DNA from: an uncultured Gammaproteobacteria bacterium
GTDB taxonomy: Bacteria; Patescibacteriota; Patescibacteriia; Magasanikbacterales; JBBTXJ01
Reading direction: 5' to 3'
DNA: 64,000 nt
Assembly (NCBI GenBank): GCA_964610305.1
Contig: CAZSVL010000003.1
Coordinates: forward strand, 13,122 to 77,121
Part shown: one piece after another, positions 4,066-62,309 of the stretch
How positions within the stretch are numbered: the stretch's first letter is position 1
Layout of the letters: the number at the start of each line of letters is the position of its first letter
Notes under the pieces: generated by a model
Seen by the model: only the letters and a program-made list of their open reading frames with translations
Told to the model about the DNA's origin: nothing
The model's database searches: none
Position numbers and translations under genes: made by a program

Positions 4066-4223
4066 TAGTATAGAGTATTCAGTATTGAGTATTCAGCGGG
4101 TGCCCGCTTGTCATTCTGAACTTGATTCAGAATCCAGTTAGAAATAGAGCGCGTTTTATATTTCTGCCTGGATCCCGGATCAAGTCCGGGATGACGCTTA
4201 AACGTACTGAATACTCTATACTC
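4066..4223. repeat. GTCAT-family twin-hairpin repeat element (core 4110-4195) nested in longer outer inverted repeats
   Basis: GTCATTCTGAACTTGATTCAGAATCCAG...CTGGATCCCGGATCAAGTCCGGGATGAC, flanked by tagtatagagtattcagta / tactgaatactctatactc. Confidence 0.8.
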
Positions 4224-4227
4224 AAAA

Positions 4228-4788
4228 ATGGCATCCTACGAGATTTTAAAAAAGGGGACCGTTATCAAATATAAAGGTGCTCCTCATGTGGTGGTTTTTC
4301 ACCAGCATTATAAACCGGGCAAAGGCCCGGCTTTTGTGCGCACAAAGCTTAAGAATCTTATATCTGGAAACGTAATAGAGAATAATTTTAAGGGCGGAGA
4401 TCAGGTGGAGCCGGTAGAGGTAGAGCGTCAGAATTTGCAGTACTTATATCCGGGAGAGGGCGAGTATAATTTTATGCGTACCGATACCTATGAGCAAATA
4501 TCAATTCCGGCAGATGTAGTAGGGGATCAAATGCAATGGCTTAAAGAGAGTCAAGAGGTAATTGGACTTTTTTTTGAAGGATCAGTTGTTTCCGTAGATA
4601 TTCCAACCAAGTTAACGCTAAAAGTTGTCTCTGCTGGAGAGGGTGTTCGCGGTGATACGGCATCCGGAACCGCCACAAAAGAGGTGGAGCTAGAGACGGG
4701 AACAAAAATTCAGGTCCCACTTTTTATAAAACAAGGTCAGTCCGTTGTAATAAACACGGAAACAGGAAGCTACGCAGAAAGAGTGTAG
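4228..4788 (+). CDS. efp: Elongation factor P
   Basis: 186 aa. KGG...ATKEVELETGTKIQVPLFIKQGQSVVINTETGSYAERV matches the EF-P C-terminus. Confidence 0.9.
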   Translation: MASYEILKKGTVIKYKGAPHVVVFHQHYKPGKGPAFVRTKLKNLISGNVIENNFKGGDQVEPVEVERQNLQYLYPGEGEYNFMRTDTYEQISIPADVVGDQMQWLKESQEVIGLFFEGSVVSVDIPTKLTLKVVSAGEGVRGDTASGTATKEVELETGTKIQVPLFIKQGQSVVINTETGSYAERV

Positions 4789-4846
4789 CGGAGGGCGCAA
4801 GACAACTCGGTTTGCTAGGATGCAGTTTGTGCGTCCTTTTTTTATC

Positions 4847-4875
4847 TTGACAAATGTTTGTAACTAGGCTATAGT
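4847..4875 (+). promoter_or_regulatory. Consensus sigma70-type promoter (TTGACA, 17-bp spacer, TATAGT)
   Basis: TTGACA at 4847-4852 and TATAGT at 4870-4875. GGAGG ribosome-binding site before the ATG at 4908. Confidence 0.6.
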
Positions 4876-4907
4876 CTACTACGCACATTTACAACACGGA
4901 GGTCTCC

Positions 4908-6134
4908 ATGCGCAAGAGAAAATTGTGCACTAAATACGGCGAAATTCAGGTTCCAGCAAAGTCGCTGCACGGAAGCGCTGTGCTGTATTCTGAGCAGACG
5001 GTGGAGATTCTTGCTGGCACAAAAATGCGTGACGGCAAGGTTCTTAAAAAGTCAGTTACACTGCTCCCAGGAACCATCTTCATGCCACGGCTTCACAAGC
5101 CGGAGACAGGAAGGCCGTACTTTGTCTGGCAGATTTACGCTCAAGGAATCTTTGATGCTCTGCGCGGAATTATGCATATTCAGGCTGGCTACGATAGTCA
5201 GTATGAGCAGCGATACGGCCGGATGGGTGAGGTGCAGACCATAGAAGACGTGCGGTCAGCTCTGAACACCATTTTGGGATGGCTTGCCACTTACAGCAGC
5301 CTCTCTGATTTAGAGAAAGATGCGCTTGGTGAGTTTATCTCTGGAAAAACAGAGCTTGTGGGTAATGTTCAGGATGAGCATAAGCGCAGAGCGCTAGAGC
5401 GGATGATTGCCGCAAGCAAAGAAAAAGATTCTTCTGGGAAGTCTAACCCTAGTGCGCGTATGGCGCGCAGTGTTGGTGCCCGTAGAGATCTGCATGAGCG
5501 TCTGTCTCTGATCAGATTCATTGAGCCGCGGATTGGTACGCGCGCAGTTGCTTTGGCAACAGAAGACGCACGGATCCGCAGGATTTACGCGGACGCGTAC
5601 AAAAGATTTAGTGCCATTGAAAACTCAATCGGCAATGCAATTGCTGGTATGGGAGATAGCGCCAAGCGCTTTGCTGTTACGGTGATGGGAATGGTGGAAG
5701 ATCTGCAGACTATCAAGGTTGGACCCTATCCATCGCATGTGCAGAGGATCGTTAAAGATGCTCAGCAGGTTGGTAACTATATTGCAGCAAACCAAAAGAA
5801 GAAGGCACTTGCTGTACGCAAGAGGATCCTGGAGTCTCTGCGTTGCAAGAGAGCTCGCTGGCAGCTAGAGGGTATCCGTACGCCGCTTTCAATTGCAGCG
5901 GCAGGAAAAAAGAAAGATAGAGAAGCGGCTGTTGCGGCGGGGACACACAAGGTTTTTGCTGCAAGGTTGCAGGATTTCTCTGGAAGAATGGCAACCATTG
6001 CGGACGAGGATTTCAGCAAGAAAGTGAGATCCTTTGCGGTGGTGCGTTGTGATAAAGCGGCATCGCTCTTGATGGATCTGGAAGATTTTAGGGGTGCCAA
6101 GACCCTCGTCGGAGAAGCTTGTAACAGACTCTAG
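4908..6134 (+). CDS. Hypothetical protein (408 aa, Arg/Ala-rich, no recognisable domain)
   Basis: Long ORF with strong promoter and RBS. Composition is GC-richer than neighbouring genes. Confidence 0.6.
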   Translation: MRKRKLCTKYGEIQVPAKSLHGSAVLYSEQTVEILAGTKMRDGKVLKKSVTLLPGTIFMPRLHKPETGRPYFVWQIYAQGIFDALRGIMHIQAGYDSQYEQRYGRMGEVQTIEDVRSALNTILGWLATYSSLSDLEKDALGEFISGKTELVGNVQDEHKRRALERMIAASKEKDSSGKSNPSARMARSVGARRDLHERLSLIRFIEPRIGTRAVALATEDARIRRIYADAYKRFSAIENSIGNAIAGMGDSAKRFAVTVMGMVEDLQTIKVGPYPSHVQRIVKDAQQVGNYIAANQKKKALAVRKRILESLRCKRARWQLEGIRTPLSIAAAGKKKDREAAVAAGTHKVFAARLQDFSGRMATIADEDFSKKVRSFAVVRCDKAASLLMDLEDFRGAKTLVGEACNRL

Positions 6135-6434
6135 TTTGGTGGTGGCAGGATTGGCTGCTTATTAAAGAAAGAGGATGTTGCTACCATCATTCTACCTTAA
6201 AGATTTGCAGCAACAAGATTTAGCTTTTTGTAAGATGAACGTGCTGTTGCTGCTGTTTGTTTGCTACCCAAGAGAGGTTGTGTAGTAAGACGGTTCCGGC
6301 TGGGCGGCTTTTCTTTATTGAACTTTTCAGTGGCAAGATCGGCGAGCTGCAAGGACCAAGGGAGTGCCACTGTTTTCCGACGTTGCGTTGCAGCGTCGGT
6401 TTTTAATTTAAAAAGCGCCTTGCGGCGCCTTTTT

Positions 6435-7499
6435 CTATCCTGCAATGAGTTCCTGCTTCTCAACTTCTTCCAGTATCGCTTTCTTAATTTTCGGAATGAG
6501 CTTAGGATTGTCATTTTTCATATACAGCCTTGCTTTCTCCCTTCCCACACCCAAGCGCTCCTCGCCATAGGTGTAGCTGTTGCCGCTTTTTTTAATTACA
6601 CCATAGAGCACGCCGGCATCAAGCAAGTCTCCTGTAATTGAAATACCCTCGTTATACATTATGTTCACAATAGCTGTTCTAAACGGTGGTGCCACTTTAT
6701 TTTTAACAATCTTCACCTTCACTTGGTTGCCCACAATTTTGTCACTTTGTTTTATCTGAGCGCTGCGCCTTACTTCTATTCTAATACTTGAATAAAATTT
6801 AAGCGCGTTTCCTCCCGTGGTGGTCTCAGGATTGCCAAAGAAGACGCCAATTTTGTGCCGTGTTTGGTTTATAAAGATAACCACAGTATTTGTCTTTGCA
6901 ACAATACCCGCAAGTTTTCTGAGGGCTTGGCTCATGAGTCTTGCTTGCAGCCCCATGTGTCGATCCCCCATATCGCCCTCAATTTCCGCCTTGGGAACCA
7001 GTGCTGCAACAGAGTCAACAACAATAACATCAACAGCATTTGATCTCACCAGCGTCTCAACAATTTCCAAGGCTTGCTCACCAGTATCAGGCTGAGAAAT
7101 TAAAAGCTCATCTACATTCACACCAATTTTTTTTGCGTATTCTGGATCAAGCGCATGCTCTGCATCTACAAAAGCAGCCAGACCGCCTATTTTTTGAACC
7201 TCAGAAACAATGTGCTGCGCCAGCGTTGTTTTTCCTGATGCTTCTGGACCAAATACTTCTATTATTCTTCCGCGTGGTACGCCACCAATGCCCAGTGCAA
7301 TATCAATAGAGAGACAACCGGTAGGGATGGCGTCTATTTCAGTTCGTTTGGCCTGGCCGAACTTCATTATAGAGCCATCTCCAAATCTTTGCTTTATCTG
7401 ATCAATAGCGGCCTGCGCTGCCGCGGCTCTTGGGTCGGTCTTTTTGTTCTCCTCTTTCTTTTTCCCCTCCTTGGATTTAGTTTGCGTCTGCTCTGGCAT
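6435..7499 (-). CDS. recA: Recombinase RecA
   Basis: Walker [12 protein letters not shown], the L1/L2 regions and the overall RecA consensus are obvious. Confidence 0.95.
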
Positions 7500-7580
7500 A
7501 GGTTTGAGTAATATATGAAGGGTTGTATTTTAGCGCTTTGCGGCAATGCATGCAAATTATAAATGCCCCGCTTGGGGCAT

Positions 7581-10816: not shown

Positions 10817-10871
10817 ATAAAAAAACCGACGCAAACCCCTACTCTTGAATAGAAGTTCTTTCTTGCGTCGG
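10817..10871 (-). terminator. Second terminator-like hairpin, covarying with the one at 10676-10732
   Basis: CCGACGCAA...TTGCGTCGG plus a T-run on the minus strand. Confidence 0.5.
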
Positions 10872-11156
10872 AAAAAGGTTTGGGAGGCTTTGCTTCTTAC
10901 TAGCAAGCGGCTCTTGCCCAAAAACCTCTCAGAAGACCTGCGAAAGCTGTAGGTGCAATTATCCGCAACGTACGCTAGATTTCATGTCCATCACCGAGGT
11001 GATGAAATGAGGAAAGTATCTTACGTACACTTTGGACACCCACCCCTTCGCAGGTTTTCTGGGAGGTTTGTGAGGACAGTATAATGCCATAAATACTTTT
11101 GTGTCAAGATGTGGACAAATAAAAAAGGGCGCGGTGTTTCCACGTTGCCCTGTTGG

Positions 11157-11909
11157 TTACTGAACCTCAATCGCCTTAGGCGGGTTGTTGTCCAGAGATC
11201 TTGGGTCCAGTGCATGCAAGGCCTTGGAGTAGGCCTTGCTATGGCGGGGGCCCGCTGCCTTGTACACCTGCCAGGTGTCTGTGGCAATGGTATAGGTTAC
11301 GTAGCACGTCTCAAAGCCAGCCCAGGTCACGCCTTGTGCCTCTACGAACACACTGTGGTTCATAGACTGACCGGTGCACCAGTCCAGGCCGGTGGGCTCC
11401 TTCTGAATCCACTGACCGTTGCCCGTGAACACCCAGAGCGAGTGCAGACGACGTGTGCCGTCCTGGTCAGTAAAGACGGTTGCTATTCGGCCAGAGACAA
11501 ATGCGTAGTCGCTCGTCCAGTTGTGACTGAATGAGGTATGGCGAACCAGGCGATCCTCCGTCGCATCGTACTTGTAGATTCGGCTTCCCGAGCTAGTGAA
11601 GAAGTAAAGGCCGTTTTCCTGCTCAGAGGTCTGGGTCACTACGCTACTGCCCATAACCAGCTTTCTGCCGGTGGGCGTAACGAGAACCTGATACCGACTT
11701 CCTGGCATCTGGTGAATAGTGCGCCCCTCTACATCACTGACGATGATGTCCTCCGTCTGGTTCCACCAGTTGAGCGTCTTAAAGACACCAACGGTTTCAC
11801 TCTTGTGGAGCGTGTCAGCGCGCGCATCCTCATAGGTACTGTGGCTCGGCGGCTCATTGCAGCCAGCCAGCAGAAGTGCGATTGTCAAAACATTCAGAGC
11901 GGTTCTCAT
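11157..11909 (-). CDS. Hypothetical lipoprotein (signal peptide with LAGC lipobox)
   Basis: MRTALNVLTIALLLAGC lipobox. GC-richer than the genome background. Followed by the hairpin AGGGCAACGTGGAAACACCGCGCCCT plus a T-run. Confidence 0.65.
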   Translation of the reverse strand: MRTALNVLTIALLLAGCNEPPSHSTYEDARADTLHKSETVGVFKTLNWWNQTEDIIVSDVEGRTIHQMPGSRYQVLVTPTGRKLVMGSSVVTQTSEQENGLYFFTSSGSRIYKYDATEDRLVRHTSFSHNWTSDYAFVSGRIATVFTDQDGTRRLHSLWVFTGNGQWIQKEPTGLDWCTGQSMNHSVFVEAQGVTWAGFETCYVTYTIATDTWQVYKAAGPRHSKAYSKALHALDPRSLDNNPPKAIEVQ

Positions 11910-12228
11910 GTGCTTCCCCTTTCTGTGATTGTCTACTGTCTGTCCTACGGGCCGACCATGTGGTGGACATGATCGGCCGCTAGGACAGACTAGCGGGAAA
12001 AATTAGTCAGTAACAGTGGTCCTGATGCCCGAAGGCACCAGGGGACACTCGTTACTCACAAGTGTCTTAACCGGAAGGGCACGGCGCAACTGCAGCACGT
12101 TCTGGAAACCAGACCGCCACAGCATGGGTACGTCGCGCACAACCGAAATCATTGGCATTGGTAAACCCTCCCGCAAGCAGGAGGAGTGACGCGTCCAAAG
12201 CATGGATTGGGCGCGATACTCCTCTTCC

Positions 12229-12316
12229 GTCATTCTGAACTTGATTCAGAATCTCCCAAAGAAAACGGTTTAAGAAAAACGTCTTCTGTGAGATCCCAGA
12301 TCTTCTCTGGGATGAC
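12229..12316. repeat. GTCAT-family twin-hairpin repeat element
   Basis: GTCATTCTGAACTTGATTCAGAATCTC...GAGATCCCAGATCTTCTCTGGGATGAC. Confidence 0.8.
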
Positions 12317-12491
12317 AGAGATAAGGGGTCTACCAACAAACAGCAGGCATGATGGCATCGTTGGAGAAAGGAGGATGGGTGTTGCAAAGAACGCACCATC
12401 ATAACCTGCTGACTGTTGGTAGTAAGTTGTAAAAGATCCACACGCCCGCCGGTGATCGACGGGGTGTGGGGTCTTGGCTGTTTGTTGGGTT

Positions 12492-12872: not shown

Positions 12873-13142
12873 ACTCCCTCCCAAGAGTTCGTTTTCAAAC
12901 AAAAACAGTCACAGATCGTCCTCGGTAGCATGGCTGGCGCTTACCTTTTTTGTATATAGGTTTATATGCGACAGGTGCCCCCTCGGACGATCTCTGACTG
13001 CTTTAAAATTGTTAACGTTCTTTGCAACGACGATATCATTATAATACCGCAACTGCACACTATAGCACACTTTTGTCATTTTGTCAAGAGGAGATGCCTA
13101 TAATTTGGCTTATTTTAGCGCGATTTTGCATTTTGCTTCAGG

Positions 13143-20737: not shown

Positions 20738-20746
20738 TTTAAAAAA

Positions 20747-46112: not shown

Positions 46113-46175
46113 TACGTAAACGCGGTCATAGTATGCCACAGAGCGCTAAATTAGTCAACACGGTTATGGTATAAT

Positions 46176-53820: not shown

Positions 53821-55464
53821 ATGACATTACAAAAAATACATCCAAAAGCGGTTGCGTTTTTTTTGATCGCCTTTTTAGTCTTAGCGCTGACTCCTAAACC
53901 TGCAGGAGCATCTTCGCCATACGCTCCAGAAGAGCTGGTGAAAGGATCAAGTGATACGGTCTACTACATAGGCCAAGACAACATGAGGTACGTTTTCCCT
54001 AATCAAAAAGTGTACATGAGTTGGTATGAGAATTTTGATGATGTGCGCACTATTGCCGATGCTGATATAAACGCTACGTCTATTGCTGGCGTGGTGAGAT
54101 ACAGACCAGGTGTGCGCATGATAAAAGTGCCGGATGATCCAAAAGTATATACGGTTTCCTCTCAAGGGTTGGTGCGCCATGTTTTAGATGAAGATGTTGC
54201 GACAGATCTTTATGGAACAGCGTGGAATACTTTTATAGATGATATGCAGGCGTCACTTTTTGTAAGTAATTACAATTTTGGCGCGGTCATTTCAGGCGCA
54301 AGTCAGTATGATCCAGCAGCTCAAACAGCCGCAGCAACCACTATTAGCGCAGATTTTGGTTTGATTGATACCACTACAGAATCTTCAGAGCCGTCTGGCT
54401 CTTCCGATGATATAACTTCTGGCACAGATGATCAGACAAGTGGTGATGGTGATGCTCAAGATACTTCAACTTCTGACCCAGATCCAGATCCGGAACCAGA
54501 GCCAATTGCGGTGCCAACACTCTATAAAGATATGGAAGCATTAGTATATGCTCCCTCTGATTCTCAAAAAGTATACGGCGCTTCTTCTGATCCAAATGTT
54601 GGTATTATAGTTAGCAGCAATGGCGGCACTACCTGGACAACCAGCAGAGATGGAGCTTCTGCCAGCGCTTTGGCAGTGAATCACGCAGATCCTAATGTGG
54701 CGCTTGCTGTAGAAGGTGGTGTAATTTTAAGAACCGCCGATGGCGGATCCCAGTGGGAGGCGGCCACCGTGCCAACAGATTTTTCTGACGCGCTCGGACT
54801 GGATTTTTCAAAGACAGACTCTGATGTTGCATACGCTGTCTCTGCAACCATACTAATTAAGAGCGTTGACGGTGGTGTAACGTGGGAGAGAGTGAATGTG
54901 GTAAACGCCAACACCTATAATTATACTGGCGCAATGGAAGTGTCTCATACTAACAGTAGTTTGCTTTTGGTGGGATCTACCAAAGGTGTGCAGCGTAGTG
55001 TTAACGGTGGTATGGATTGGACACAGCACAAGCCCGGTCAGGGAGAAATGCTGCCAGTACGCAGCTTGGCGCTTAATCAAGCCAATACGTCTGTGTTTTA
55101 TATGGTGACAGACGAGGGGATTTGGTACACGGCAGACACGGGAGATAGTTGGAATGTTGCCAAGGCGCCAGATGTAGCACACGCAGAAGTGCACAACATA
55201 GCGCTTGCGGAAAGTGACACCAATATATTGTACATAACCACAGAAAGCGGTGTCTTTGTTAGCACTGATAGAGCGGTAACATGGGAGGGGAAAACAGACG
55301 GTATGGTTTTGGCAGATTCTCACGCAATCGCTGTTGCTCCAGATGACGCTCTAGCAGTATTGGCAGGAACAGACGATCAGGCAGAGGATAATGGTAATGA
55401 GGGCATTTACTCGAGCACAAACGGAGGAGAAGAGTGGGCCATTGTTGGAGCATTGATATTCTAA
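53821..55464 (+). CDS. Secreted BNR/Asp-box repeat (beta-propeller) protein
   Basis: Signal peptide. At least 7 S-x-D-x-G-x-T-W repeats (SSNGGTTWTTS, TADGGSQWEAA, SVDGGVTWERV, SVNGGMDWTQH ...). Confidence 0.75.
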   Translation: MTLQKIHPKAVAFFLIAFLVLALTPKPAGASSPYAPEELVKGSSDTVYYIGQDNMRYVFPNQKVYMSWYENFDDVRTIADADINATSIAGVVRYRPGVRMIKVPDDPKVYTVSSQGLVRHVLDEDVATDLYGTAWNTFIDDMQASLFVSNYNFGAVISGASQYDPAAQTAAATTISADFGLIDTTTESSEPSGSSDDITSGTDDQTSGDGDAQDTSTSDPDPDPEPEPIAVPTLYKDMEALVYAPSDSQKVYGASSDPNVGIIVSSNGGTTWTTSRDGASASALAVNHADPNVALAVEGGVILRTADGGSQWEAATVPTDFSDALGLDFSKTDSDVAYAVSATILIKSVDGGVTWERVNVVNANTYNYTGAMEVSHTNSSLLLVGSTKGVQRSVNGGMDWTQHKPGQGEMLPVRSLALNQANTSVFYMVTDEGIWYTADTGDSWNVAKAPDVAHAEVHNIALAESDTNILYITTESGVFVSTDRAVTWEGKTDGMVLADSHAIAVAPDDALAVLAGTDDQAEDNGNEGIYSSTNGGEEWAIVGALIF

Positions 55465-55503
55465 ATAATTAAAAAAACGCGGCAGTCCGCGTTTTTTTGT
55501 TTG

Positions 55504-55586
55504 TCATCGCGAGGAGCATAGCGACGTGGCGATCCCGTGGCTAAGCAACGGGATTGCCACGGGGGCATGCGCCCCCTCGCAATGAC
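55504..55586. repeat. GTCAT-family long-hairpin repeat (subtype B variant)
   Basis: GTCATCGCGAGGAGCATAGCGACGTGGCGATCCCGTGG...CCACGGGGGCATGCGCCCCCTCGCAATGAC. Preceded by the bidirectional terminator ACGCGGcagtCCGCGT. Confidence 0.7.
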
Positions 55587-55590
55587 CAAC

Positions 55591-56598
55591 CTAGATAACA
55601 GGATTAAGAGGTTTTCTTCCACCAAGCACGGCGATGATATTTTTTGCAGCAATTTTTGCCATCTCATCTCTGGTTTCTTTTGCTGCACTGGCAATGTGTG
55701 GGGTTAAAATAACATTTTCCATGTCACGCAAAGCCATGTGATCTTTTACATTGCAATCTATAAGCGGCTCACATTCAAATACATCAAGTGCGGCGCCAGC
55801 GATTTGTTTTTTCTTAAGTGCTCGCAAGAGCGCAATTTCTTTTACAATCGGGCCGCGGGCTGTATTTACCAGAAAAGCGGTTTCTTTCATGGCAGCCAGT
55901 TCTTTGGTGCCAATAAGATATTTTGTAGATGGTAGTAGGGGAACATGGACAGAGACAACATCAGATCTTTTGCAAAGATTTAGCAAGTTCACTCTTTTTG
56001 CGCTTACATCTTTTTCTAATTGTTTGTTTTTAACCACGTCAGCGTACAAAATTTTCATGCCAAGTCCGTGGTGTGCAAACCGTGCGGTGGCACTTCCAAT
56101 TCTTCCGCCCCCAACAAGACCTAATGTCTTTCCTGAAAGTTCTGTGGTAAGCATCATAAGAGGAGCCCAACTTTTATACTTTCCTGCGCGTGTGTATCGG
56201 TCTGCTTCTACTATTCTTTTTGAGATAGCCATGATAAGAGCAATGGTATGCTCTGCAACGGCGCGGCTAAGGACACCTGGCGTATTGGTTATGGTAACGC
56301 CGTATTTTTTTGCAGCTTTTATATCTATATTGTTGTATCCTACTGCATTTTGAGCAATAACTTTTAGTTGAGATCCGGCAGCTTTAAAGACGCCTTCATC
56401 TATTTTTTCCGTAAGCATGCATAAAATAGCATCTGCTCCTTTTATTTCCTTAAGAAGATTTTTGTAAGGTATGGCGGGGCCGCTTCCGTACACATCGCGT
56501 TTATCGTGCCAGACTTTTACTTCAAAGTTTTTCTTAGTCTTGAGTAGTTTCATCCCAGCATCTGGAATGGTTCTTGTGATAAATATTTTCTTTTTCAT
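55591..56598 (-). CDS. D-isomer-specific 2-hydroxyacid dehydrogenase (glycerate/phosphoglycerate dehydrogenase family)
   Basis: Start taken at MKKKIFITRT. NAD-binding GLVGGGRIGSATARF. Catalytic R/E/H triad region. Confidence 0.85.
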   Translation of the reverse strand: MKKKIFITRTIPDAGMKLLKTKKNFEVKVWHDKRDVYGSGPAIPYKNLLKEIKGADAILCMLTEKIDEGVFKAAGSQLKVIAQNAVGYNNIDIKAAKKYGVTITNTPGVLSRAVAEHTIALIMAISKRIVEADRYTRAGKYKSWAPLMMLTTELSGKTLGLVGGGRIGSATARFAHHGLGMKILYADVVKNKQLEKDVSAKRVNLLNLCKRSDVVSVHVPLLPSTKYLIGTKELAAMKETAFLVNTARGPIVKEIALLRALKKKQIAGAALDVFECEPLIDCNVKDHMALRDMENVILTPHIASAAKETRDEMAKIAAKNIIAVLGGRKPLNPVI

Positions 56599-56648
56599 GG
56601 CGATATTATAACACAAAGCCACTGTAACAGCGGCTTTGTTTGATTGAT

Positions 56649-57236
56649 TTATTCTACAATGAGAGATCCGGTCATACTCCCGTGGCCTGATCCGCATGGG
56701 ACGCTACATACCAGCGGGAATGTTCCCTTACTGCTGGCAGTAAATTCTATAGTGGTGGCTTTTCCAGGAGAGAGCACTTCATTTACGTTGAATGCTTTTA
56801 TGAAAATGCCGTGAGTGACATCCGTGCTTTCAATAATGAGTCTCACCGTGTCTCCTTGGTTTACTCTAACCACCTCTGGATCAAATTCCCATTTTCGTGC
56901 GGTCATGTTTATTATACGCAGCGCACCTTCATCAGACACCGGTGCTGCAGTCGTATTGCTGGATCCGTTCTGGTTCTGGGTCTCCGCCGACGCCCCCTCG
57001 TCGGCTGACGCTTTTGGGGCCGGCTCTGTCACTTGCTCTGTTGTCTCTTCTGTTGCCTCATCCTGCACCGTTTCTGCTGTTGGCTGATCAGGATCAACTA
57101 TTTCTACTGACACCTCTGCGCTGTTAGAGCTCTCACTCGTATCTGATGGGTCTGTTGTCTCTTCTGTATTTCCTCCAGAGCAGCCTGCGCCCAGAAGGAT
57201 AAGCGCCGCTACCGCGTATTTGAGTTTTTTTTGCAT
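56649..57236 (-). CDS. Cupredoxin-domain lipoprotein with CuA-type ligand motif
   Basis: Lipobox LLGAGC. Acidic low-complexity linker. C-terminal H...C-x3-C-G-x2-H-x2-M (HGIF...CSVPCGSGHGSM). Confidence 0.6.
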   Translation of the reverse strand: MQKKLKYAVAALILLGAGCSGGNTEETTDPSDTSESSNSAEVSVEIVDPDQPTAETVQDEATEETTEQVTEPAPKASADEGASAETQNQNGSSNTTAAPVSDEGALRIINMTARKWEFDPEVVRVNQGDTVRLIIESTDVTHGIFIKAFNVNEVLSPGKATTIEFTASSKGTFPLVCSVPCGSGHGSMTGSLIVE

Positions 57237-58222: not shown

Positions 58223-58585
58223 GGTGGAGGCGCCGGGAGTCGAACCCGGGTCCAGAAAGGTTGTTCATCTGCGTCTACGTGTGTATTCCTTGCATGGTTG
58301 CCTACGCTGCTTTGCCCAAGGACAGGCGGCTGCGCAGCCGGTTCATTGCTGTGTTTAAGACATGCTCCGCAATTCCATTAGAGCAGTACCGAGCCTACAT
58401 AAGTTTCCCTAATCCCGCCTATAGGCGAGCGAGCTTTGGGGTCGCATGCTGCGTACTAGGCAGCGAGCGCGACGGACTCAGCGTCAGTATTGGCGTCTGA
58501 GTTGCGCCCGGGGGATCAAAGGGTCCCAGACATCCCTTACACGCAGCAGGTAGCGTCCGCTCCCTGTCGAAACCAGTTCGCCCCC
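58223..58585 (-). ncRNA. ssrA: tmRNA (SsrA), tag peptide ANTDAESVALAA
   Basis: 5' GGGGGCGAACTGGTTTCGACAGGGA. tRNA-like 3' end GGGTTCGACTCCCGGCGCCTCCACC. In-frame GCC AAT ACT GAC GCT GAG TCC GTC GCG CTC GCT GCC TAG. Confidence 0.85.
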
Positions 58586-58598: not shown

Positions 58599-58967
58599 TT
58601 AGTCAATGTCCAGATCATACTCGTCCCAGTAGGGGTCTCCGTCTAGATCTGCACATTCATCAGAGTGCGAAACGGCACAGCCTTCATCGCAGAAGTCCAT
58701 GTACCAATCGCAGCCTTCATCATAGCAGGATCTGCAATCAGCGAGTGCTTTGATGAAGTACTCGTTTTCGTCACAGAGCTCCCAGCTTTCCACTGTAGAG
58801 AGCTTGACCGATCCGAGGGTTGGTAGATCTTCAAAGGCCGCATCAAAGAGACCTTCCACGATCTCGTTTTTTGCGTCAAGGAGCGGCCGACTATTCCGGT
58901 GAAATGACATTGTTTCCCTTTTCAGTGAAAGAAGGACGATTAGCGCAGTATGAAGACAGTATAGCAC
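58599..58967 (-). CDS. Hypothetical acidic Cys-rich protein
   Basis: GC-rich ORF. The start may be the internal MSFHRN. Confidence 0.35.
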   Translation of the reverse strand: MLYCLHTALIVLLSLKRETMSFHRNSRPLLDAKNEIVEGLFDAAFEDLPTLGSVKLSTVESWELCDENEYFIKALADCRSCYDEGCDWYMDFCDEGCAVSHSDECADLDGDPYWDEYDLDID

Positions 58968-59073
58968 ATTTTGTACATTTTGTCAAGGGTAAAATGCCAC
59001 TTTATCTCTTATTTTAGCCAAATTTACGTAATAAAAAAACTGCCGTCTCCCGAAGGATCAGGCAGCGTGCACT

Positions 59074-60514: not shown

Positions 60515-60670
60515 TGGAAGGGGTAGGATTCGATGAGCAAATGAGTGAGTGTAATAAACATGCTCGCATGCTTATTACCGAGCGAATGCTGCTCGGCCCG
60601 AAGGGCACCTACGAAGACGGTGTCGTCGGATTTACAATCCGGTGCCTTTAACCAACTCGGCCACCCTTCC
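60515..60670 (-). tRNA. tRNA-Tyr (anticodon GTA), type II, carrying a 73-nt structured insertion in the T-loop between nt 54 and 55 (60534-60606)
   Basis: GGAAGGG...CCGGA-TTGTAAA-TCCGA...GTAGG-T[GCCCTTCGGGCCGAGCAGCATTCGCTCGGTAATAAGCATGCGAGCATGTTTATTACACTCACTCATTTGCTCA]TCGAAT-CCTAC-CCCTTCC-A. Confidence 0.6.
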
Positions 60671-60677
60671 ATTAAAG

Positions 60678-60752
60678 TATCCCCAAGGGGATTTGAACCC
60701 CTGCCTCCGGATTGAGAGTCCGGTGTCCTGAGCCTGACTAGACGATGGGGAC
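60678..60752 (-). tRNA. tRNA-Glu (anticodon CTC)
   Basis: GTCCCCATCGTCTAG...CCGGA-CTCTCAA-TCCGG...GGGG-TTCAAAT-CCCC. Confidence 0.75.
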
Positions 60753-60756
60753 GGGG

Positions 60757-60830
60757 CGGTGATGACGAGACTTGAACTCGCAACCTTCGGCCTGACAAGC
60801 CGCTACACTAGCCAATTGTGTTACATCACC
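60757..60830 (-). tRNA. tRNA-Asp (anticodon GTC)
   Basis: Acceptor GGTGATG/CATCACC-G, anticodon loop TTGTCAG. Confidence 0.7.
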
Positions 60831-60868
60831 TGAAGGCTTGCCTGGCGTAGCCGAAGGCGAAGCCTGGG

Positions 60869-60941
60869 TGGAGCCGACAGGAATCGAACCTGCGACATCC
60901 GGCGTGCAAAGCCGGCGCTCTCCCAACTGAGCTACAGCCCC
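60869..60941 (-). tRNA. tRNA-Ala (anticodon TGC), G3-U70; second copy
   Basis: GGGGCTG-TA-GCTC-AGTTGGGA-GAGC-G-CCGGC-TTTGCAC-GCCGG...CGGCTCC-A. Confidence 0.8.
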
Positions 60942-60948
60942 AAATAGG

Positions 60949-61037
60949 AGGAGGGGGTGGGATTTGAACCCACGGGACTCACTGGTGAGCCCAACGGGTT
61001 AGCAACCCGACGCCTTCAGCCACTCGGCCACCCCTCC
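60949..61037 (-). tRNA. tRNA-Ser (anticodon GCT), type II
   Basis: Acceptor GGAGGGG/CCCCTCC, 3-bp D-stem, anticodon loop TTGCTAA, long variable arm GGGCTCACCAGTGAGTCC. Confidence 0.75.
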
Positions 61038-61041
61038 ATAA

Positions 61042-61116
61042 TGCGCCCGGCGGGATTTGAACCCGCAACCACTGGATCCGGAGTCCAGCGCTCTACATCC
61101 ATTGAGCTACGGGCGT
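61042..61116 (-). tRNA. tRNA-Arg (anticodon CCG)
   Basis: ACGCCCG-TA-GCTC-AATGGATGTA-GAGC-G-CTGGA-CTCCGGA-TCCAG...GCGGG-TTCAAAT-CCCGC-CGGGCGC-A (A1-C72 mismatch). Confidence 0.7.
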
Positions 61117-61126
61117 TCAATGCTGA

Positions 61127-61181
61127 GGGCCGACGCTTTGGTCGCCCCCCCGACCCCTTCGGGCGTCGGGGCTACGGACGC
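61127..61181 (-). repeat. 44-nt twin-hairpin element (61127-61170) with an upstream pseudo-acceptor GCGTCCG-TAGC (61171-61181), duplicating the tRNA-Arg(CCG) 5' end
   Basis: RNA sense: GCGTCCG TAGC [CCCGACGCCCGAAGGGGTCGGGGGGGCGACCAAAGCGTCGGCCC] TCAGCATTGA ACGCCCGTAGC... Confidence 0.6.
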
Positions 61182-61186
61182 TTAAG

Positions 61187-61259
61187 TACGCCGTGAGGGA
61201 ATTGAACCCCCGACCCATGGATTAAAAGTCCAGTGCTCTACCTACTGAGCTAACAGCGC
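61187..61259 (-). tRNA. tRNA-Lys (anticodon TTT)
   Basis: GCGCTGT-TA-GCTC-AGTAGGTA-GAGC-A-CTGGA-CTTTTAA-TCCAT...GGGGG-TTCAATT-CCCTC-ACGGCGT-A. Confidence 0.7.
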
Positions 61260-61265
61260 ATAAAA

Positions 61266-61338
61266 GGTGAATGACGGGACTTGAACCCGCGACCTCTGGA
61301 GCCACAATCCAGCGCTCTCCCATCTGAGCTACATTCAC
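61266..61338 (-). tRNA. tRNA-His (anticodon GTG), C73
   Basis: GTGAATG-TA-GCTC...CTGGA-TTGTGGC-TCCAG...GCGGG-TTCAAGT-CCCGT-CATTCAC-C. Confidence 0.75.
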
Positions 61339-61340
61339 AG

Positions 61341-61413
61341 TGCCAGAGACAAGAATTGAACTTGTGACTCAGGGATTTTCAATCCCCAGCTCTACCTACT
61401 GAGCTACCCTGGC
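61341..61413 (-). tRNA. tRNA-Phe (anticodon GAA), intact, A37
   Basis: GCCAGGG-TA-GCTC-AGTAGGTA-GAGC-T-GGGGA-TTGAAAA-TCCCT-GAGTC-ACAAG-TTCAATT-CTTGT-CTCTGGC-A. Confidence 0.8.
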
Positions 61414-61415
61414 AT

Positions 61416-61489
61416 AGAACGGAGGGGGACTCGAACCCCCGAACATCCGATTTGCAGTCGGAGCCCTTAGCCAACTCGGGTACCCGTTC
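61416..61489 (-). tRNA. tRNA-Cys (anticodon GCA), U73; second copy
   Basis: GAACGGG...TCCGA-CTGCAAA-TCGGA-TGTTC-GGGGG-TTCGAGT-CCCCC-TCCGTTC-T. Confidence 0.75.
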
Positions 61490-61496
61490 AGAGATT

Positions 61497-61530
61497 TGTC
61501 TCCCTTCGGGAGATCTCCCGAAGGGAGACA
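61497..61530. repeat. 34-bp perfect palindrome (twin hairpin) upstream of tRNA-Cys; homologous to 1419-1452
   Basis: tgtctcccttcgggagatctcccgaagggagaca. Confidence 0.85.
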
Positions 61531-61567
61531 GTCCTGTACCTAGCCAATTCGGACACTCATCCAGAAG

Positions 61568-61713
61568 TGCGCACACTTGGACTTGATCGGTAAACGAGTG
61601 AGTGGAGTAGGCATGCTTGCATGTCTACTCCCGAGCAAGTGCGACCGAGCCCGAAGGGTACCAAGGACCCTCTGGGTGTAAACCAGATGCTCTCCCAACT
61701 GAGCTATGCACGC
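61568..61713 (-). tRNA. tRNA-Val (anticodon TAC) carrying a 73-nt structured insertion in the T-loop between nt 54 and 55 (61587-61659)
   Basis: GCGTGCA-TA-GCTC-AGTTGGGA-GAGC-A-TCTGG-TTTACAC-CCAGA-GGGTC-CTTGG-T[ACCCTTCGGGCTCGGTCGCACTTGCTCGGGAGTAGACATGCAAGCATGCCTACTCCACTCACTCGTTTACCGA]TCAAGT-CCAAG-TGTGCGC-A. Confidence 0.6.
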
Positions 61714-61717
61714 GCAG

Positions 61718-61799
61718 TAGGTCGGGGGAGACTTGAACTCCCACGTCTAATGACACCAGATTTTGAATCTGGCGCGTCTACCGGTTCCGCCACCGACCC
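61718..61799 (-). tRNA. tRNA-Leu (anticodon CAA), type II
   Basis: GGGTCGG-TG-GCG...CCAGA-TTCAAAA-TCTGG-TGTCATTAGACGT-GGGAG-TTCAAGT-CTCCC-CCGACCT-A. Confidence 0.75.
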
Positions 61800-61871
61800 G
61801 TCTTTGTAATATGCTTCTATCAGAAAGTGAAGATTCACCGTCTGAATAAAAGGGGGAAGAGACTTCCCCGG

Positions 61872-61988
61872 AGCGGTAAGCCGGCCTCGAACCGACGACC
61901 CTCTGCTTGGAAGGCAGACGCTCTACCAACTGAGGACCGACGTTTCAGTCGGTCCCCCGACCCCTTTAGGCGTCGGGGCTATTACCGT
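61872..61988 (-). tRNA. tRNA-Gly (anticodon TCC) copy interrupted in the D-stem (between nt 11 and 12) by a 44-nt twin-hairpin element (61934-61977)
   Basis: ACGGTAA-TA-GC[CCCGACGCCTAAAGGGGTCGGGGGACCGACTGAAACGTCGGTCC]TC-AGTTGGTA-GAGC-G-TCTGC-CTTCCAA-GCAGA-GGGTC-GTCGG-TTCGAGG-CCGGC-TTACCGC-T. Confidence 0.55.
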
Positions 61989-61998
61989 AAATTTAAAG

Positions 61999-62071
61999 AG
62001 CGGATGATCGGGCTTGAACCGATGACTATCTGGTTGGAAGCCAGATGCTCTCCCAACTGAGCTACATCCGC
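61999..62071 (-). tRNA. tRNA-Gly (anticodon TCC), intact array copy
   Basis: GCGGATG-TA-GCTC-AGTTGGGA-GAGC-A-TCTGG-CTTCCAA-CCAGA-TAGTC-ATCGG-TTCAAGC-CCGAT-CATCCGC-T. Confidence 0.8.
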
Positions 62072-62075
62072 AAAG

Positions 62076-62148
62076 TACGCCGTGGAGGATTCGAACCTCC
62101 GACCGATGGATTAAGAGTCCACTGCTCTACCAACTGAGCTAACAGCGC
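62076..62148 (-). tRNA. tRNA-Lys (anticodon CTT)
   Basis: GCGCTGT-TA-GCTC-AGTTGGTA-GAGC-A-GTGGA-CTCTTAA-TCCAT-CGGTC-GGAGG-TTCGAAT-CCTCC-ACGGCGT-A. Confidence 0.75.
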
Positions 62149-62153
62149 AAAAG

Positions 62154-62224
62154 CTCGGGAACTAGGATTCGAACCTAGATGAACTGATCCAGAGTCAGCC
62201 GTCCTGCCGTTAGACGATTCCCGA
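62154..62224 (-). tRNA. tRNA-Gln (anticodon CTG)
   Basis: TCGGGAA-TC-GTCT-AACGGCA-GGAC-G-GCTGA-CTCTGGA-TCAGT...CTAGG-TTCGAAT-CCTAG-TTCCCGA-G. Confidence 0.75.
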
Positions 62225-62234
62225 ATGGTTAGTT

Positions 62235-62309
62235 GTCATTGCGAGCAGTGTAACTGCGAAGCAATCCGGTATGTAAGCAACGGGATTGCTTCGCTTTGCT
62301 TGCAATGAC
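62235..62309. repeat. GTCAT-family long-hairpin repeat (subtype B) inside the tRNA array
   Basis: GTCATTGCGAGCAGTGTAACTGCGAAGCAATCC...GGGATTGCTTCGCTTTGCTTGCAATGAC. Confidence 0.8.

Follow-up and report, generated by a model that had tools for sequence, protein, structure and literature searches.

Described families of palindromic repeats

CGTC-tagged REPs comprise the families CGTC-1 to -4, among them dRS3 of Neisseria and RPE-4/RPE-6 of Rickettsia (Di Nocera et al. 2013, BMC Genomics 14:522). Their units are defined by a CGTC or TGTC tag, complementary AT at stem positions 1-2 and a 3-nt tail with the consensus CCA, and have stems of 8-9 bp and loops of 4-5 nt, with odd loops in a few species; head-to-head dimers predominate, copies can be intragenic or lie within longer palindromes, and they have no linked transposase (Di Nocera et al. 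2013).

Judged by their sequence, the repeats in the window (the whole 64-kb stretch of DNA that we analysed) are CGTC-tagged REPs carried by a small-genome Patescibacteria bacterium akin to Ca. Magasanikbacteria. An earlier note on this DNA had called them REP-like, and they match the published superfamily feature by feature: a CGTC/TGTC tag, an A/T stem opening, a 3-nt C-rich tail, a predominance of head-to-head dimers (heterodimers and homodimers both), some dimers within longer palindromes, in-frame intragenic copies, and no linked transposase gene. The 8-bp stem and 5-nt loop of subtype A units are those of CGTC-2, and subtype A variants also match sphingomonads, where CGTC-2 was described. 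They depart from the published families in that their tails are mostly CCC or CTC and not CCA, subtype B units fall outside the 8-9-bp stem and 4-5-nt loop, and the outer palindromes are locus-specific heptamer repeats and not a family consensus. What the window adds to an already described class is a phylum, Patescibacteria, absent from the five that the 2013 survey covered.

The elements also resemble GTAG-REPs and REPINs, the repeats mobilised by RAYT (IS200/IS605-like Y1) transposases, in the short palindrome with an unpaired 5' tetranucleotide, in inverted doublets that fold as one long hairpin and are copied whole, in intergenic bias and in the single-strand polarity of the unit. They differ in their tag (YGTC, not GTAG), in that no RAYT was found in the window or between units in the 2.7 Mb of loci that we collected, and in that the same CGTC-type unit sequences turn up in different phyla, REPIN sequences being as a rule specific to a lineage. 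Rickettsia palindromic elements (Ogata et al. 2000) are likewise read through in frame in apparently functional proteins, at loop or linker sites, in a reduced-genome, host-dependent bacterium; the Rickettsia RPE-1 elements are longer, at 100-150 bp. The likeness to RPE-4/-6 is one of shared features.

The repeat family in the window

The window holds 21 units, arranged as 10 tag-outward doublets and one solo unit (Table 1); genome-wide copy number is an extrapolation from it. A scanner for the pattern GTC, AT-opened stem, loop, AT-closed stem, then C returned 22 matches, against a mean of 0.72 and a maximum of 4 in 100 first-order Markov simulations. Three of the 22 were rejected as false, one (23232) lying within glmS and two (62006 and 62511) being tRNA T-arms. 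The pattern GTCAT-N(62-92)-ATGAC matched nine times, one match (32841-32920) being an overlapping by-product; 100 dinucleotide-preserving shuffles gave a mean of 1.24 and a largest count of 5, with none reaching 9. A relaxed hairpin scan of the window yielded no additional members, and an Rfam search of the repeats gave no family match, even at E<=5.

Table 1. Coordinates, structure and neighbours of the repeat elements in the window
Feature	Position	Strand	Description	Context and fold
REP doublet 1	4110-4195	.	units 4110-4134 (+; tGTCATTCTGAACTTGATTCAGAATcca), 4171-4195 (-; cGTCATCCCGGACTTGATCCGGGATcca)	between rpsR (3846-4061) and efp (4228-4788); single-hairpin fold, -38.8/-38.0 kcal/mol (two strands)
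Outer inverted repeat around doublet 1	4067-4225	.	heptamers; arms 4067-4096, 4205-4225	18 nt, 100% complementary; entire structure -75.5 kcal/mol
REP doublet 2	12229-12316	.	heterodimer: left stem ATTCTGAA, right stem ATCCCAGA	units fold separately; in a 2.3-kb stretch without recognisable gene
REP doublet 3	13182-13265	.	right unit with decayed tag (…GGATGAT)	flanked by a minus-strand promoter-like site and the rpoB promoter-like site
Outer inverted repeat around doublet 3	13140-13308	.	heptamers; arms 13140-13169, 13279-13308	30 nt, 87% complementary; -82.7 kcal/mol
Solo unit	13528-13563	-	tGTCATCCCGAAATTTGCGAAGCAAATATCCGGGATctc on minus strand	42 nt upstream of rpoB start codon
REP doublet 4	24911-24982	.	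GTCATTGCGAGCGAAGCGAAGCAATCC…	37 nt downstream of glmS, upstream of yebC; -47.4/-49.1 kcal/mol
REP doublet 5	28586-28668	.	in frame; encodes ILSQRRRIPFKKQVSRLTGFFASLRMT	in Wzy_C/O-antigen-ligase-like ORF 27541-28857 (-), in loop between hydrophobic segments
REP doublet 6	32806-32905	.	in frame; encodes SLRSPQSEKQSRHKEDQLQSDEIATPLSEVRDD	in SpoIID-like ORF 32105-34222 (+), in linker following first Ig-like domain
REP doublet 7	42298-42394	.		between convergent genes: cobalamin adenosyltransferase (41689-42243, +), TasR-like gene (42468-44228, -)
REP doublet 8	44597-44708	.		within minus-strand tRNA operon: tRNA-Pro (44718-44791), tRNA-Leu (44509-44591); -67.1 kcal/mol
REP doublet 9	55503-55586	.		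between convergent genes: BNR/sortilin-like gene (53821-55464, +), 2-hydroxyacid dehydrogenase gene (55591-56697, -)
REP doublet 10	62235-62309	.		within minus-strand tRNA array: tRNA-Ser (62316-62410), tRNA-Gln (62153-62224)

The earlier note had described a family of hairpin repeats, and every copy that it listed was found, although its list needs correcting on four points. What it places at 13192-13268 starts at 13182, and its right terminus is degenerate, reading …GGATGAT instead of …GGATGAC; those given as 44596-44707 and 55504-55586 become 44597-44708 and 55503-55586; and the supposed half copy at 13526-13563 is instead a complete solo unit, 13528-13563, in minus orientation. The fourth point is that the list was one doublet short, 32806-32905 having been overlooked. 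The earlier note had not recognised that two doublets lie in frame within genes. As it had described, 4110-4195 and 13182-13265 are nested in longer, locus-specific inverted repeats. Its exclusion of CRISPR agrees with the irregular spacing over 58 kb, in which no periodic short repeats were found.

Unit and doublet architecture

A unit spans 25-45 nt and consists of an unpaired 5' YGTC tag, a hairpin and the C-rich tail. The stem opens with A-T then T-A, and the tail starts with C, in all window units; among the 20 that have an intact GTC, 12 have a T and 6 a C immediately before it. The subtypes A and B proposed previously do exist, but as variants of one unit plan and not as two architectures: subtype B has a 5-bp outer stem, whose halves are separated by 11-31 nt, a purine-rich GAGCGAAGCGAA-like segment and often an inner hairpin. 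Two facing units, tags outward, on either side of a 10-45-nt spacer make up a doublet, which can fold as a single 70-110-nt hairpin, or as a cruciform or four-way junction. Doublets 1 and 3 have homologous spacers (85% identity over 59 nt including the spacer), and the spacers of doublets 4, 9 and 10 are homologous to one another. The copied unit is evidently the whole doublet with its spacer, as in REPINs.

Mispairs of the G·T and G·A kinds on the tag strand number 50, against 18 of A·C and C·T (p=1.3e-4), and loops are 64% purine on that strand. These non-Watson-Crick positions and purine-rich loops give the unit its polarity, and the strand carrying the 5' tag is the one that matters. The 2.7 Mb of collected loci contain 735 units. 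GTC is preceded by T in 333 of them, by C in 328, by G in 40 and by A in 34; 265 have the tail CCA and 186 the tail CTC. Dimers with their tags outward (185) outnumber tag-inward (32) and tandem (47) pairs, and 380 of the 735 units lie outside tag-outward doublets. When a search pattern left four stem pairs free to take non-complementary Y/R choices, 121 of its 136 matches were Watson-Crick at all four, where about 8.5 would be expected; to judge from this stem covariation, the conserved feature is the hairpin.

Presence and absence among relatives

A comparison of orthologous sites, raised in the earlier note as a check for polymorphism, showed relatives to differ at four sites, so that the elements must have inserted repeatedly. 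At loop 1 of the Wzy-like protein the window has a doublet, as do the related loci L228 and L230; L229 has a solo unit there, and L244 an independent doublet of a different subtype; the L231 contig begins inside an element at this site, and the remaining 17 aligned homologues have no element there. Loop 2 carries a doublet in L228-L231 and solo units in L239 and L248, and has no doublet in the window. The unit in the rpoB leader of the window has no counterpart at the corresponding place in L228, and the SpoIID linkers contain several different element-derived peptides in relatives and none in distant homologues. No filled and empty pair among the relatives was close enough to give insertion boundaries base by base.

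Density among relatives varies widely, with 51 of 80 related loci lacking a unit. At a larger scale, a single unit variant has matches in at least 120 genome contigs, which represent at least 17 phyla, many of these matches being metagenome-assembled genomes in which mis-binning is possible. The family as a whole spans many phyla, and more than 100 genomes carry it.

Spread of the doublets

The explanation that we consider probable, taken with all its parts together, is that CGTC REP doublets are copied whole and inserted by way of a folded single strand by an enzyme acting in trans. The strand would be recognised at the tag and the hairpin foot, by an enzyme supplied from elsewhere; we infer this single-strand route by analogy with GTAG-REPs and RAYT (HUH/Y1) transposases. 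We know of no enzyme that mobilises CGTC REPs. No transposase linked to the elements was found, a Y1/HUH domain being absent from the 53 window ORFs scanned, and the genes bracketed by units in the collected 2.7 Mb were those for NusA, for structural proteins of phages or GTAs, and for similar products.

Landing sites are gene-to-gene spacers, a 5' leader, tRNA operons and in-frame surface loops or linkers of two proteins. After insertion most copies would be co-transcribed and may form stable stem-loops at which 3' exonucleases are stopped or the transcript is processed; intragenic copies would be translated as tolerated loop peptides. The fold energies of whole doublets show no advantage for the transcribed strand, which counts against claiming an RNA role for the doublets.

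Invariance within an intragenic doublet

The intragenic doublet common to L228-L231 contains four invariant blocks, totalling 57 core nt, in which all 18 degenerate third positions are unchanged, including 10 of 10 fourfold-degenerate ones, whereas invariant positions make up only 31% of the fourfold sites in the rest of the gene. These orthologues share 78-82% amino-acid identity and 58% identity at fourfold sites, synonymous sites being nearly saturated. The inner hairpins have been swapped for unrelated sequences that still pair, and between the L228 and L230 orthologues ATTCT/AGAAT has changed to ATCCT/AGGAT, a compensatory change. A purely selfish, decaying insertion would not predict such invariance, which points to constraint on the host copy, or to gene conversion.

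It is possible, although we hold it only as the lesser prospect, that these are structured elements useful to the host, with selection keeping units and doublets for some job of the folded RNA or DNA, such as mRNA 3'-end protection, separation of tRNAs in precursors or binding of a conserved host factor. Mobility would then be a mere route of arrival, so that this reading overlaps with whole-doublet copying and does not exclude it. Besides the 57 invariant nt, the replaced yet pairing hairpins and the compensatory change, it draws on identical 25-nt unit variants in at least 17 phyla and on most window copies lying where they are transcribed (behind stop codons, within tRNA operons, in the leader). 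However, doublet 3 may be untranscribed, placed as it is between a divergent pair of promoter-like sites, the transcribed strand has no energy advantage, density among related loci is uneven, and copies occur inside unrelated proteins. A 50-fold variation in copy number argues against one general REP function (Di Nocera et al. 2013), and gene conversion or quasi-palindrome correction could mimic constraint.

Alternative origins

Repair-type processes of the latter kind could also both generate and homogenise the repeats: template switching in quasi-palindromes, fold-back synthesis and gene conversion would act locally, in place of a cut-or-copy transposition reaction. No dedicated transposase is found here or in the literature, orthologues have inner hairpins that pair perfectly but are unrelated in sequence, the outcome expected of templated correction, and three insertions are wrapped in locus-specific inverted repeats that fold-back copying of the flank could create. 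We nevertheless judge a transposase-free origin improbable: tag, stem-opening bases and tail are identical across unrelated contexts and phyla, and whole doublets share homologous spacers at distant loci, so that template sequence must move, beyond the reach of local repair.

Even less credible is the label MITE, also applied in the earlier note, under which the elements would be IS deletion derivatives moved by a DDE transposase acting on terminal inverted repeats, with target-site duplications. Like bacterial MITEs such as Correia/NEMIS, RUP and Nezha, they are small, non-coding and multi-copy, have inverted termini (GTCAT…ATGAC), and can be co-transcribed and fold. Unlike them, they have no terminal inverted repeats other than the palindrome itself, and the flanks of the ten doublets show no consistent direct repeat or target-site duplication; no parent IS with such ends was found in the 2.7 Mb; and each arm is an autonomous hairpin unit with a covarying stem that commonly occurs alone.

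That the repeats serve the TIGR-Tas protein (gene at 42468-44228) as stem-loop guide RNAs (tigRNAs) or as targets we regard as highly improbable. IS110-type relatives of TasR target REPs. The literature on CGTC REPs records REPs serving as IS targets. The score of the TasR-like gene exceeds the NCBIfam cut-off. There is a doublet on either side of this gene, at 74 nt from its 3' end and, with tRNA-Leu in between, at 369 nt upstream of the start codon. The TasR proteins of Patescibacteria (CPR) work with arrays of stem-loops that have palindromes at their flanks (Faure et al. 2025; bioRxiv 2026.09.09.750476). REP doublets are by comparison dispersed, 9 of 11 loci in the window being far from the gene, and occur across many bacterial phyla, including classical alphaproteobacteria; they lack the paired 9-nt spacers with box C/D, no 9-nt spacer pair framed by CCA…UG being visible by eye in the gene-adjacent doublets, and the window has no periodic short repeats.

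Least tenable of all are ordinary Rho-independent terminators, alike by chance, since this reading, for all the G+C-rich hairpins behind stop codons at several loci, is already refuted by the sequence itself: the copies share tag, stem-opening bases and tail, none is followed by a 3' T-run on either strand, two lie inside ORFs and two between tRNAs within operons. Simple terminators with no shared termini were the outcome that would have refuted the earlier note, and the copies do not turn out to be such.

As further observations on its gene content, the window includes a TIGR-Tas gene (TasR-like, 42468-44228), and interrupted tRNA genes are present.

Anatomy and census of the units

All of the copies listed in the earlier note are present in the window sequence, to which we add the doublet 32806-32905, overlooked there, and correct one start that had been placed 10 bases too far right (13182, not 13192). 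This gives a window total of 21 units, arranged as ten doublets with their GTC ends outward and the solo unit 13528-13563. Read from the termini inward, the copies reduce to a common unit, GTC-AT-N3-8…N'3-8-AT-C, with five stem variants that are exact complements (ATTGC/GCAAT, ATTCT/AGAAT, ATCCC/GGGAT, ATCGC/GCGAT and ATCTC/GAGAT). The pattern GTCAT-N62-92-ATGAC occurs nine times in the window, compared with a mean of 1.24 in 100 dinucleotide-preserving shuffles, none of which reached nine. A unit scanner gave 22 matches in the window against a simulation mean of 0.72 and maximum of 4; three of the 22 are false, one lying within glmS and two being tRNA T-arms, and a relaxed scan of the window returned no additional family members.

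All 21 window units have the form GTC-AT…AT-C, the AT stem opening being a scanner criterion that is seen too in the earlier note's independent list and in pattern-free inverted-repeat output. Of the 20 window units with an intact GTC, 12 have T immediately before it, 6 have C, and A and G occur once each, so that 18 carry a YGTC tag; one further unit has a decayed tag. Tails in the window all begin with C (CCC, CTC, CCA, CTA or CCG). Seven units (4110, 4195, 12229, 12316, 13182, 13265 and 42298) have the 8-bp stem and 5-nt loop of subtype A, and unit 42394 has an 8-bp stem with an 18-nt loop. The other 13 have an outer stem of 5-6 bp, with 11-29 nt separating the stem halves. The shortest form of subtype B, ATTGC-GA-GC-GAA-GC-GA(A)-GCAAT, can be read as one unbroken hairpin that includes two G·A pairs plus a GC-GAA-GC mini-hairpin with its GAA triloop; GCGAAGC is a well-known and very stable DNA mini-hairpin. 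Whole doublets of 72-112 nt are all very stable, folding at -26 to -67 kcal/mol.

Across 2.7 Mb of fetched loci, we counted 735 units. Here GTC is preceded by T in 333, C in 328, G in 40 and A in 34, and the commonest tail is CCA (265), followed by CTC (186). Pairs in these loci are mostly tag-outward (185), with 32 tag-inward and 47 in tandem.

Genomic setting of the copies

Two of the doublets lie in frame within protein-coding genes (see table). Both ORFs are intact, with Pfam domains flanking the inserts on both sides or downstream, and some homologues of each gene (Wzy_C and SpoIID-like) carry inserts while others do not. An example of an element-encoded peptide is …SLRSPQSEKQS…EIATPLSEVRDD….

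Coordinates of repeat units and other features of the window
Feature	Position (strand)	Setting	Details	Basis
Doublet	4110-4195	3' of rpsR, 5' of efp		gene calls + domain scans
Doublet	12229	stretch without recognisable gene		
Doublet	13182	between two divergent promoter-like sites, 5' of rpoB		
Solo unit	13528-13563	42 nt ahead of rpoB start codon		
Doublet	24911	3' of glmS		gene calls + domain scans
Doublet	28586-28668	in frame, O-antigen-ligase-like gene 27541-28857	27 residues, loop between hydrophobic segments	
Doublet	32806-32905	in frame, SpoIID-like gene 32105-34222	33 residues, domain linker	
Doublets	42298 and 55503	separate convergent genes		gene calls + domain scans
Doublets	44597 and 62235	between tRNAs, minus-strand tRNA operons		gene calls
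TasR-like ORF	42468-44228 (-)		586 aa	
Leader of TasR-like gene	44229-44450		222 nt	
tRNA array	60515-63956 (-)	contains doublet 62235	dense, ~25 tRNA genes in 3.5 kb	
tmRNA	58223-58585 (-)	2 kb downstream of tRNA array	tag ANTDAESVALAA	
tRNA-Tyr(GTA)-like	60515-60670 (-)			
tRNA-Val(TAC)-like	~61575-61715 (-)			
Two-hairpin block, four copies	41125-41188, 46034-46113, 61122-61185, 61929-61992 (-)	within tRNA D-arm-like sequence	44-50 nt	
23S_rRNA_IVP/bAvd-like gene	25792-26151	between yebC and ruvC	four-helix protein; cassette 25754-26176	
Short tandem heptamer runs	4067-4096, 13140-13155, 13279-13302, 25755-25781, 26149-26175, 28137-28169			
Group I intron	45617-45837 (-)	between ORF 44812-45513 (-) and tRNA-Ala 45918-45991 (-)	83.8 bits	Rfam
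70-nt segment, three copies	13057-13126, 41568-41637, 58956-59025		67-70% identical	
Gene-less stretch	10817-13050		2.2 kb; long inverted repeats at 10919-11072, 11938-11990, 12902-13004	
59-nt hairpin repeat	20739-20797 and 21860-21918	just 3' of adjacent minus-strand unannotated genes 20806-21795 and 21924-22937	83% identical	

Doublet 44597 belongs to a separate tRNA-Pro/tRNA-Leu operon, about 16 kb from the tRNA array. The only other contig found to encode an identical EF-P (L001, Logan contig SRR8146441_51164, 2.3 kb) begins 120 nt upstream of efp, where the window has a REP doublet with its outer palindrome, which suggests that the repeat breaks short-read assemblies. Such repeats also yield many spurious small "hypothetical proteins" and, when proteins from metagenome-derived genomes are aligned, show up as odd insertions.

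Relation to CGTC-tagged REPs

Judged by their anatomy, the window repeats are best placed in the CGTC-tagged REP superfamily. As defined by Di Nocera, De Gregorio & Rocco (2013, BMC Genomics 14:522), these have an unpaired 5' tag CGTC (TGTC or CCTC allowed), almost invariably complementary A and T at stem positions 1 and 2, a stem of 8-9 bp, a loop of 4-5 nt and a 3-nt unpaired tail with the consensus CCA. They occur mostly as head-to-head homo- and heterodimers, other arrangements being rare; some dimers lie inside longer palindromes, in-frame intragenic copies are represented by Rickettsia RPE-4/-6, and no transposase is associated (Di Nocera et al. 2013). The tag, AT stem opening, C-led tail, head-to-head dimers, in-frame copies and, among the ORFs scanned, lack of a flanking or dedicated transposase are all as in the window, and the published stem and loop lengths of CGTC-2 are those of subtype A. 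Subtype B, however, falls outside the published range of 8-9 bp and 4-5 nt, although atypical loops were mentioned for Bradyrhizobium, K. olearia and M. prima (Di Nocera et al. 2013). GTAG-REPs differ in that their palindromes start at the 5' end with the tetranucleotide GTAG, where 18 of the 20 window units with an intact GTC have YGTC.

The five phyla listed in 2013 do not include Patescibacteria (Di Nocera et al. 2013), and RepRanger 2025 and the 2018 HUH survey merely cite that paper. Our literature search returned no paper tying REPs or REPINs to Patescibacteria, full-text searches with the terminal 10-11-mers gave nothing relevant, only primer coincidences, and Rfam gave no family matching the window elements, either at the gathering threshold or at E<=5. 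The family is real and well defined and its kind is already known; it is new for Patescibacteria, and subtype B is a structural variant beyond the published range. A poorly understood, already described repeat class is in this way extended to the Candidate Phyla Radiation (CPR). CPR genomes are about 1 Mb, and spare DNA in them is thought to be scarce; extrapolating from the window, where there is one unit per 3 kb, their share of such a genome would be ~1%.

Host and distribution

The nearest named relative of the SpoIID-like protein is from Candidatus Magasanikbacteria, others being from "Patescibacteria group" genomes, and for the Wzy gene the best relatives, at 57-62% identity, are contigs with Hainich (Hain-H) well labels in their names; we therefore take the host to be a Patescibacteria (CPR) bacterium. 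The family as a whole is very widespread. An exact 26-mer, GTCATTGCGAGCGAAGCGAAGCAATC, is found in 105 IMG/VR contigs, with both doublets and solo units among the rows inspected, and blastn of one doublet found matches in Novosphingobium (33 places on one megaplasmid) and on Aulosira and Nostoc plasmids. A degenerate subtype-A pattern matched at least 120 genome contigs from at least 17 phyla, as read from record titles. Pseudomonadota, Bacteroidota, Chloroflexota, Actinomycetota, Bacillota, Campylobacterota, Nitrospirota, Spirochaetota, Elusimicrobiota, Fibrobacterota, Omnitrophota and several Patescibacteria lineages are among the matches listed, as are isolate genomes of Sphingomonas, Sphingobium, Sphingopyxis and Kordia. 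Single cross-phylum records need caution, since many are metagenome-assembled genomes.

Hairpin conservation and strand polarity

The pattern used for the genome scan left the Y or R choices at four stem pairs independent of one another, so that ~8.5 of the 136 matches listed would be Watson-Crick at all four with free choice, compared with the 121 found. Both T-A and C-G are common at each of the four pairs among these 136 matches. The hairpin is thus the feature of the units that is conserved.

Another property of the units is their asymmetry. At non-Watson-Crick positions of the short-loop units, the tag-5' strand has G·T or G·A in 50 cases and A·C or C·T in 18 (p=1.3e-4), and purines make up 64% of that strand in the segment separating the stem halves. 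The unit is therefore polar, which is what recognition of one folded single strand, of DNA or RNA, would lead one to expect. Fold energies of whole doublets show no consistent difference between the transcribed and non-transcribed strands and so do not single out RNA; the polarity is visible solely in the mismatch types and the loop composition.

Evidence that the elements have moved

Comparison of the window with relatives' loci indicates that the elements have moved. At the first insertion site in the Wzy gene (loop 1), a doublet is present in the window and in the relatives' loci L228 and L230, a solo unit in L229, and a doublet of another subtype in the distant L244; the L231 contig starts inside an element at this site, and the remaining 17 aligned homologues are empty. 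At loop 2, a doublet is present in L228-L231 and absent from the window, with solo units in L239 and L248. The rpoB leader carries a solo unit in the window and none in L228, and ahead of the rpoB promoter a doublet in the window stands where L228 has a solo unit. Element-derived peptides of several kinds occupy three linkers of the SpoIID-like relatives P0002-P0007, and distant homologues are without any. The window and its relatives provide a compact natural experiment, with different family members having inserted time and again into the same loops and linkers of membrane proteins.

The copies at L244:2357-2515, L239:10547-10675 and L248:10580-10690 are independent members, of other subtypes, in the same protein loops of distant Patescibacteria homologues; an example of another subtype in distant homologues is GTCATTCCAGCGCAAGCGGGAATCC, with the peptide VIPAQAGIQ. 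Of the SpoIID-like homologues (here P0004 and P0005), some have at least four stretches of peptide derived from elements.

Within the window, doublets 4110 and 13182 share 85% identity over 59 nt, spacer included, and doublets 24911, 55503 and 62235 have the spacer core CCCGTTGCTWA in common. Whole doublets are therefore homologous, spacers included, and the doublet is the copied unit, just as the inverted doublet is the replicating unit in REPINs. The comparison of all fetched loci and plasmids yielded no clean pair of filled and empty sites at nucleotide resolution, and the flanks of the ten doublets have no consistent direct repeat or target duplication, GCTT being present on both sides only at 4110-4195.

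Search for a mobilising factor

The scanned window ORFs have no Y1/HUH or DDE transposase domain, and there is no RAYT gene within the 64-kb window or bracketed by units in the fetched loci. The genes that are bracketed by units in those loci give 137 candidates, and those that recur encode structural proteins of phages or GTAs. Phage portal and capsid genes, DUF2460, NusA and an aldehyde dehydrogenase are among the bracketed genes, and no transposase emerged. The only recombinase-like gene nearby is a TasR-like one. This negative result agrees with the 2013 conclusion that CGTC REPs have no dedicated transposase. From the analogy with GTAG-REPs and their RAYTs, taken together with the strand polarity found here, we infer that a folded single strand would be recognised at its tag and at the foot of the hairpin.

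Invariant core of an intragenic copy

The loop 2 doublet of the Wzy gene is orthologous in L228-L231, whose genes are 77-82% identical in protein. We argue that each insertion was inherited rather than repeatedly re-inserted, because orthologues keep site-specific stem types. At fourfold-degenerate sites the four genes have a pairwise identity of 58%, and 31% of such sites are invariant across all four. Within the doublet, four blocks totalling 57 nt, which comprise the termini, the purine-rich segments and the central stem, are invariant in four of four taxa. These blocks hold 19 third-codon positions, of which 18 are degenerate and 10 fourfold, and the chance of all 10 fourfold sites staying invariant is ~1e-5. 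The two inner hairpins of the doublet have been replaced by unrelated sequences of other lengths, with pairing kept. The constancy of the core does not fit plain selfish decay; it reflects either host constraint or homogenisation by conversion.

A host function for the folded element is possible and is compatible with a mobile origin. A further reading would be that CGTC REPs are held under host-level sequence constraint and read by a factor common to most bacteria, and are not decaying selfish DNA. This reading fits with the presence of the same tag-hairpin-tail units, identical 25-mers included, in at least 17 phyla, including ultra-small Patescibacteria genomes, with the defined functional strand, and with at least one orthologous coding copy having 57 unchanged core nucleotides among nearly saturated surrounding synonymous sites; we nevertheless regard it as improbable. 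Were the recogniser a universal host enzyme and not a transposase encoded by an element, the 13-year-old puzzle of the missing dedicated transposase would be explained, and could be tested by phyletic profiling against unit counts. The constant core across four diverged lineages bears on what recognises CGTC REPs, and on whether they are parasitic or have been co-opted.

Alternative readings of the doublets

We also considered whether the doublets are linked to the neighbouring TIGR-Tas gene, given that CPR TasR proteins use palindrome-flanked stem-loop arrays. A TIGR array consists of tandem units by a tas gene, each with two ~9-nt spacers and with box C (CCA) and box D (UG) (Faure et al. 2025; bioRxiv 2026.09.09.750476). 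The doublets beside the gene, however, show no paired 9-nt spacer framing, the window has no periodic motif, and the units are dispersed over 58 kb in a family found in many phyla. A likeness of the REP tag and tail to UG…CCA, the box D and box C of tigRNA repeats, was rejected: C precedes G as often as T does, tail-to-tail spacers measure 4-45 nt and not 9, and the tag is not paired. A likeness to a tRNA T-arm + CCA minihelix was rejected as a by-product of the scanner: the discriminator base is absent, and CCA is just one of several tails.

Terminators, CRISPR and classical MITEs are rejected on the tested features: no T-run follows any doublet within 15 nt on either strand, so the doublets are not the simple terminators raised in the earlier note as a refuting case; the inverted pairs lie 1-11 kb apart with no periodic repeats in the window, which upholds its exclusion of CRISPR; and its MITE label fails for want of a fixed-length target-site duplication at the ten doublets.

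The TasR-like ORF itself matches NCBIfam NF052498, 'TIGR-Tas system RNA-guided endonuclease', at 120 bits (cut-off 100), with weaker IS110 matches (NF033542 and Pfam PF02371), and its size suggests that it is of the expanded TasR clade described for CPR bacteria. Its leader folds better than 200 of 200 shuffles (z=-3.6) and has three palindrome-closed stem-loops (GGGAGA…UCUCCC, CCUUUUUUC…GAAAAAGG and GGGUAA…UUACCC), which could be stem-loop tigRNAs; there is no regular stem-loop array in the window.

Other features of the window

The tRNA-Tyr- and tRNA-Val-like genes each have a 72-75-nt three-hairpin insert in the T-loop, in the context …GTAGGT[insert]TCGAATCCTAC…, and both inserts are enclosed in an 89-nt repeat with 72% identity. 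Neither gene is called by ARAGORN, and the array has no other Tyr or Val tRNA; the inserts may be small tRNA introns located away from the anticodon. The two-hairpin block, TAGC-CCCCGACG…GTCGGGG-GGCCGAC…GTCGGCC-CTCAG, sits between GTAGC and TCAG, and its second hairpin shows a compensatory change. A nearly complete tRNA-Gly(TCC)-like body comes after one copy and a tRNA-Arg(TCT)-like 5' half after another. The block may be an intron of the D-arm or else a REP-like element, tagged with GTAG, that targets tRNA genes.

The IVP gene is bracketed by a 28-nt inverted repeat of heptamers, 96% complementary, and its cassette is an insertion, since yebC and ruvC overlap by 4 nt (ATGA) in L228. Heptamer runs at three loci form locus-specific inverted repeats around inserted DNA, in two cases a REP doublet and in the third the IVP gene; a further run, AAGTAAC x4.7, lies inside the Wzy ORF without an inverted partner.

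On the minus strand, the 70-nt segment is a near-consensus promoter (TTGACA-17-TATAGT), its copies lying upstream of a tRNA-Leu at 41 kb, of an ORF and then the tmRNA, and of the gene-less stretch (10.8-13.0 kb). ORFs 11109-11534, 11538-11972, 11157-11909, 12067-12501 and 12492-12902 in this stretch, downstream of the strong minus-strand promoter-like site, have no Pfam match; unknown small proteins or a non-coding RNA are possible products of the stretch. The 59-nt hairpin repeat has the form AAAAAACCACACACAAGC…GCTCTTTGTGTGTGGT.
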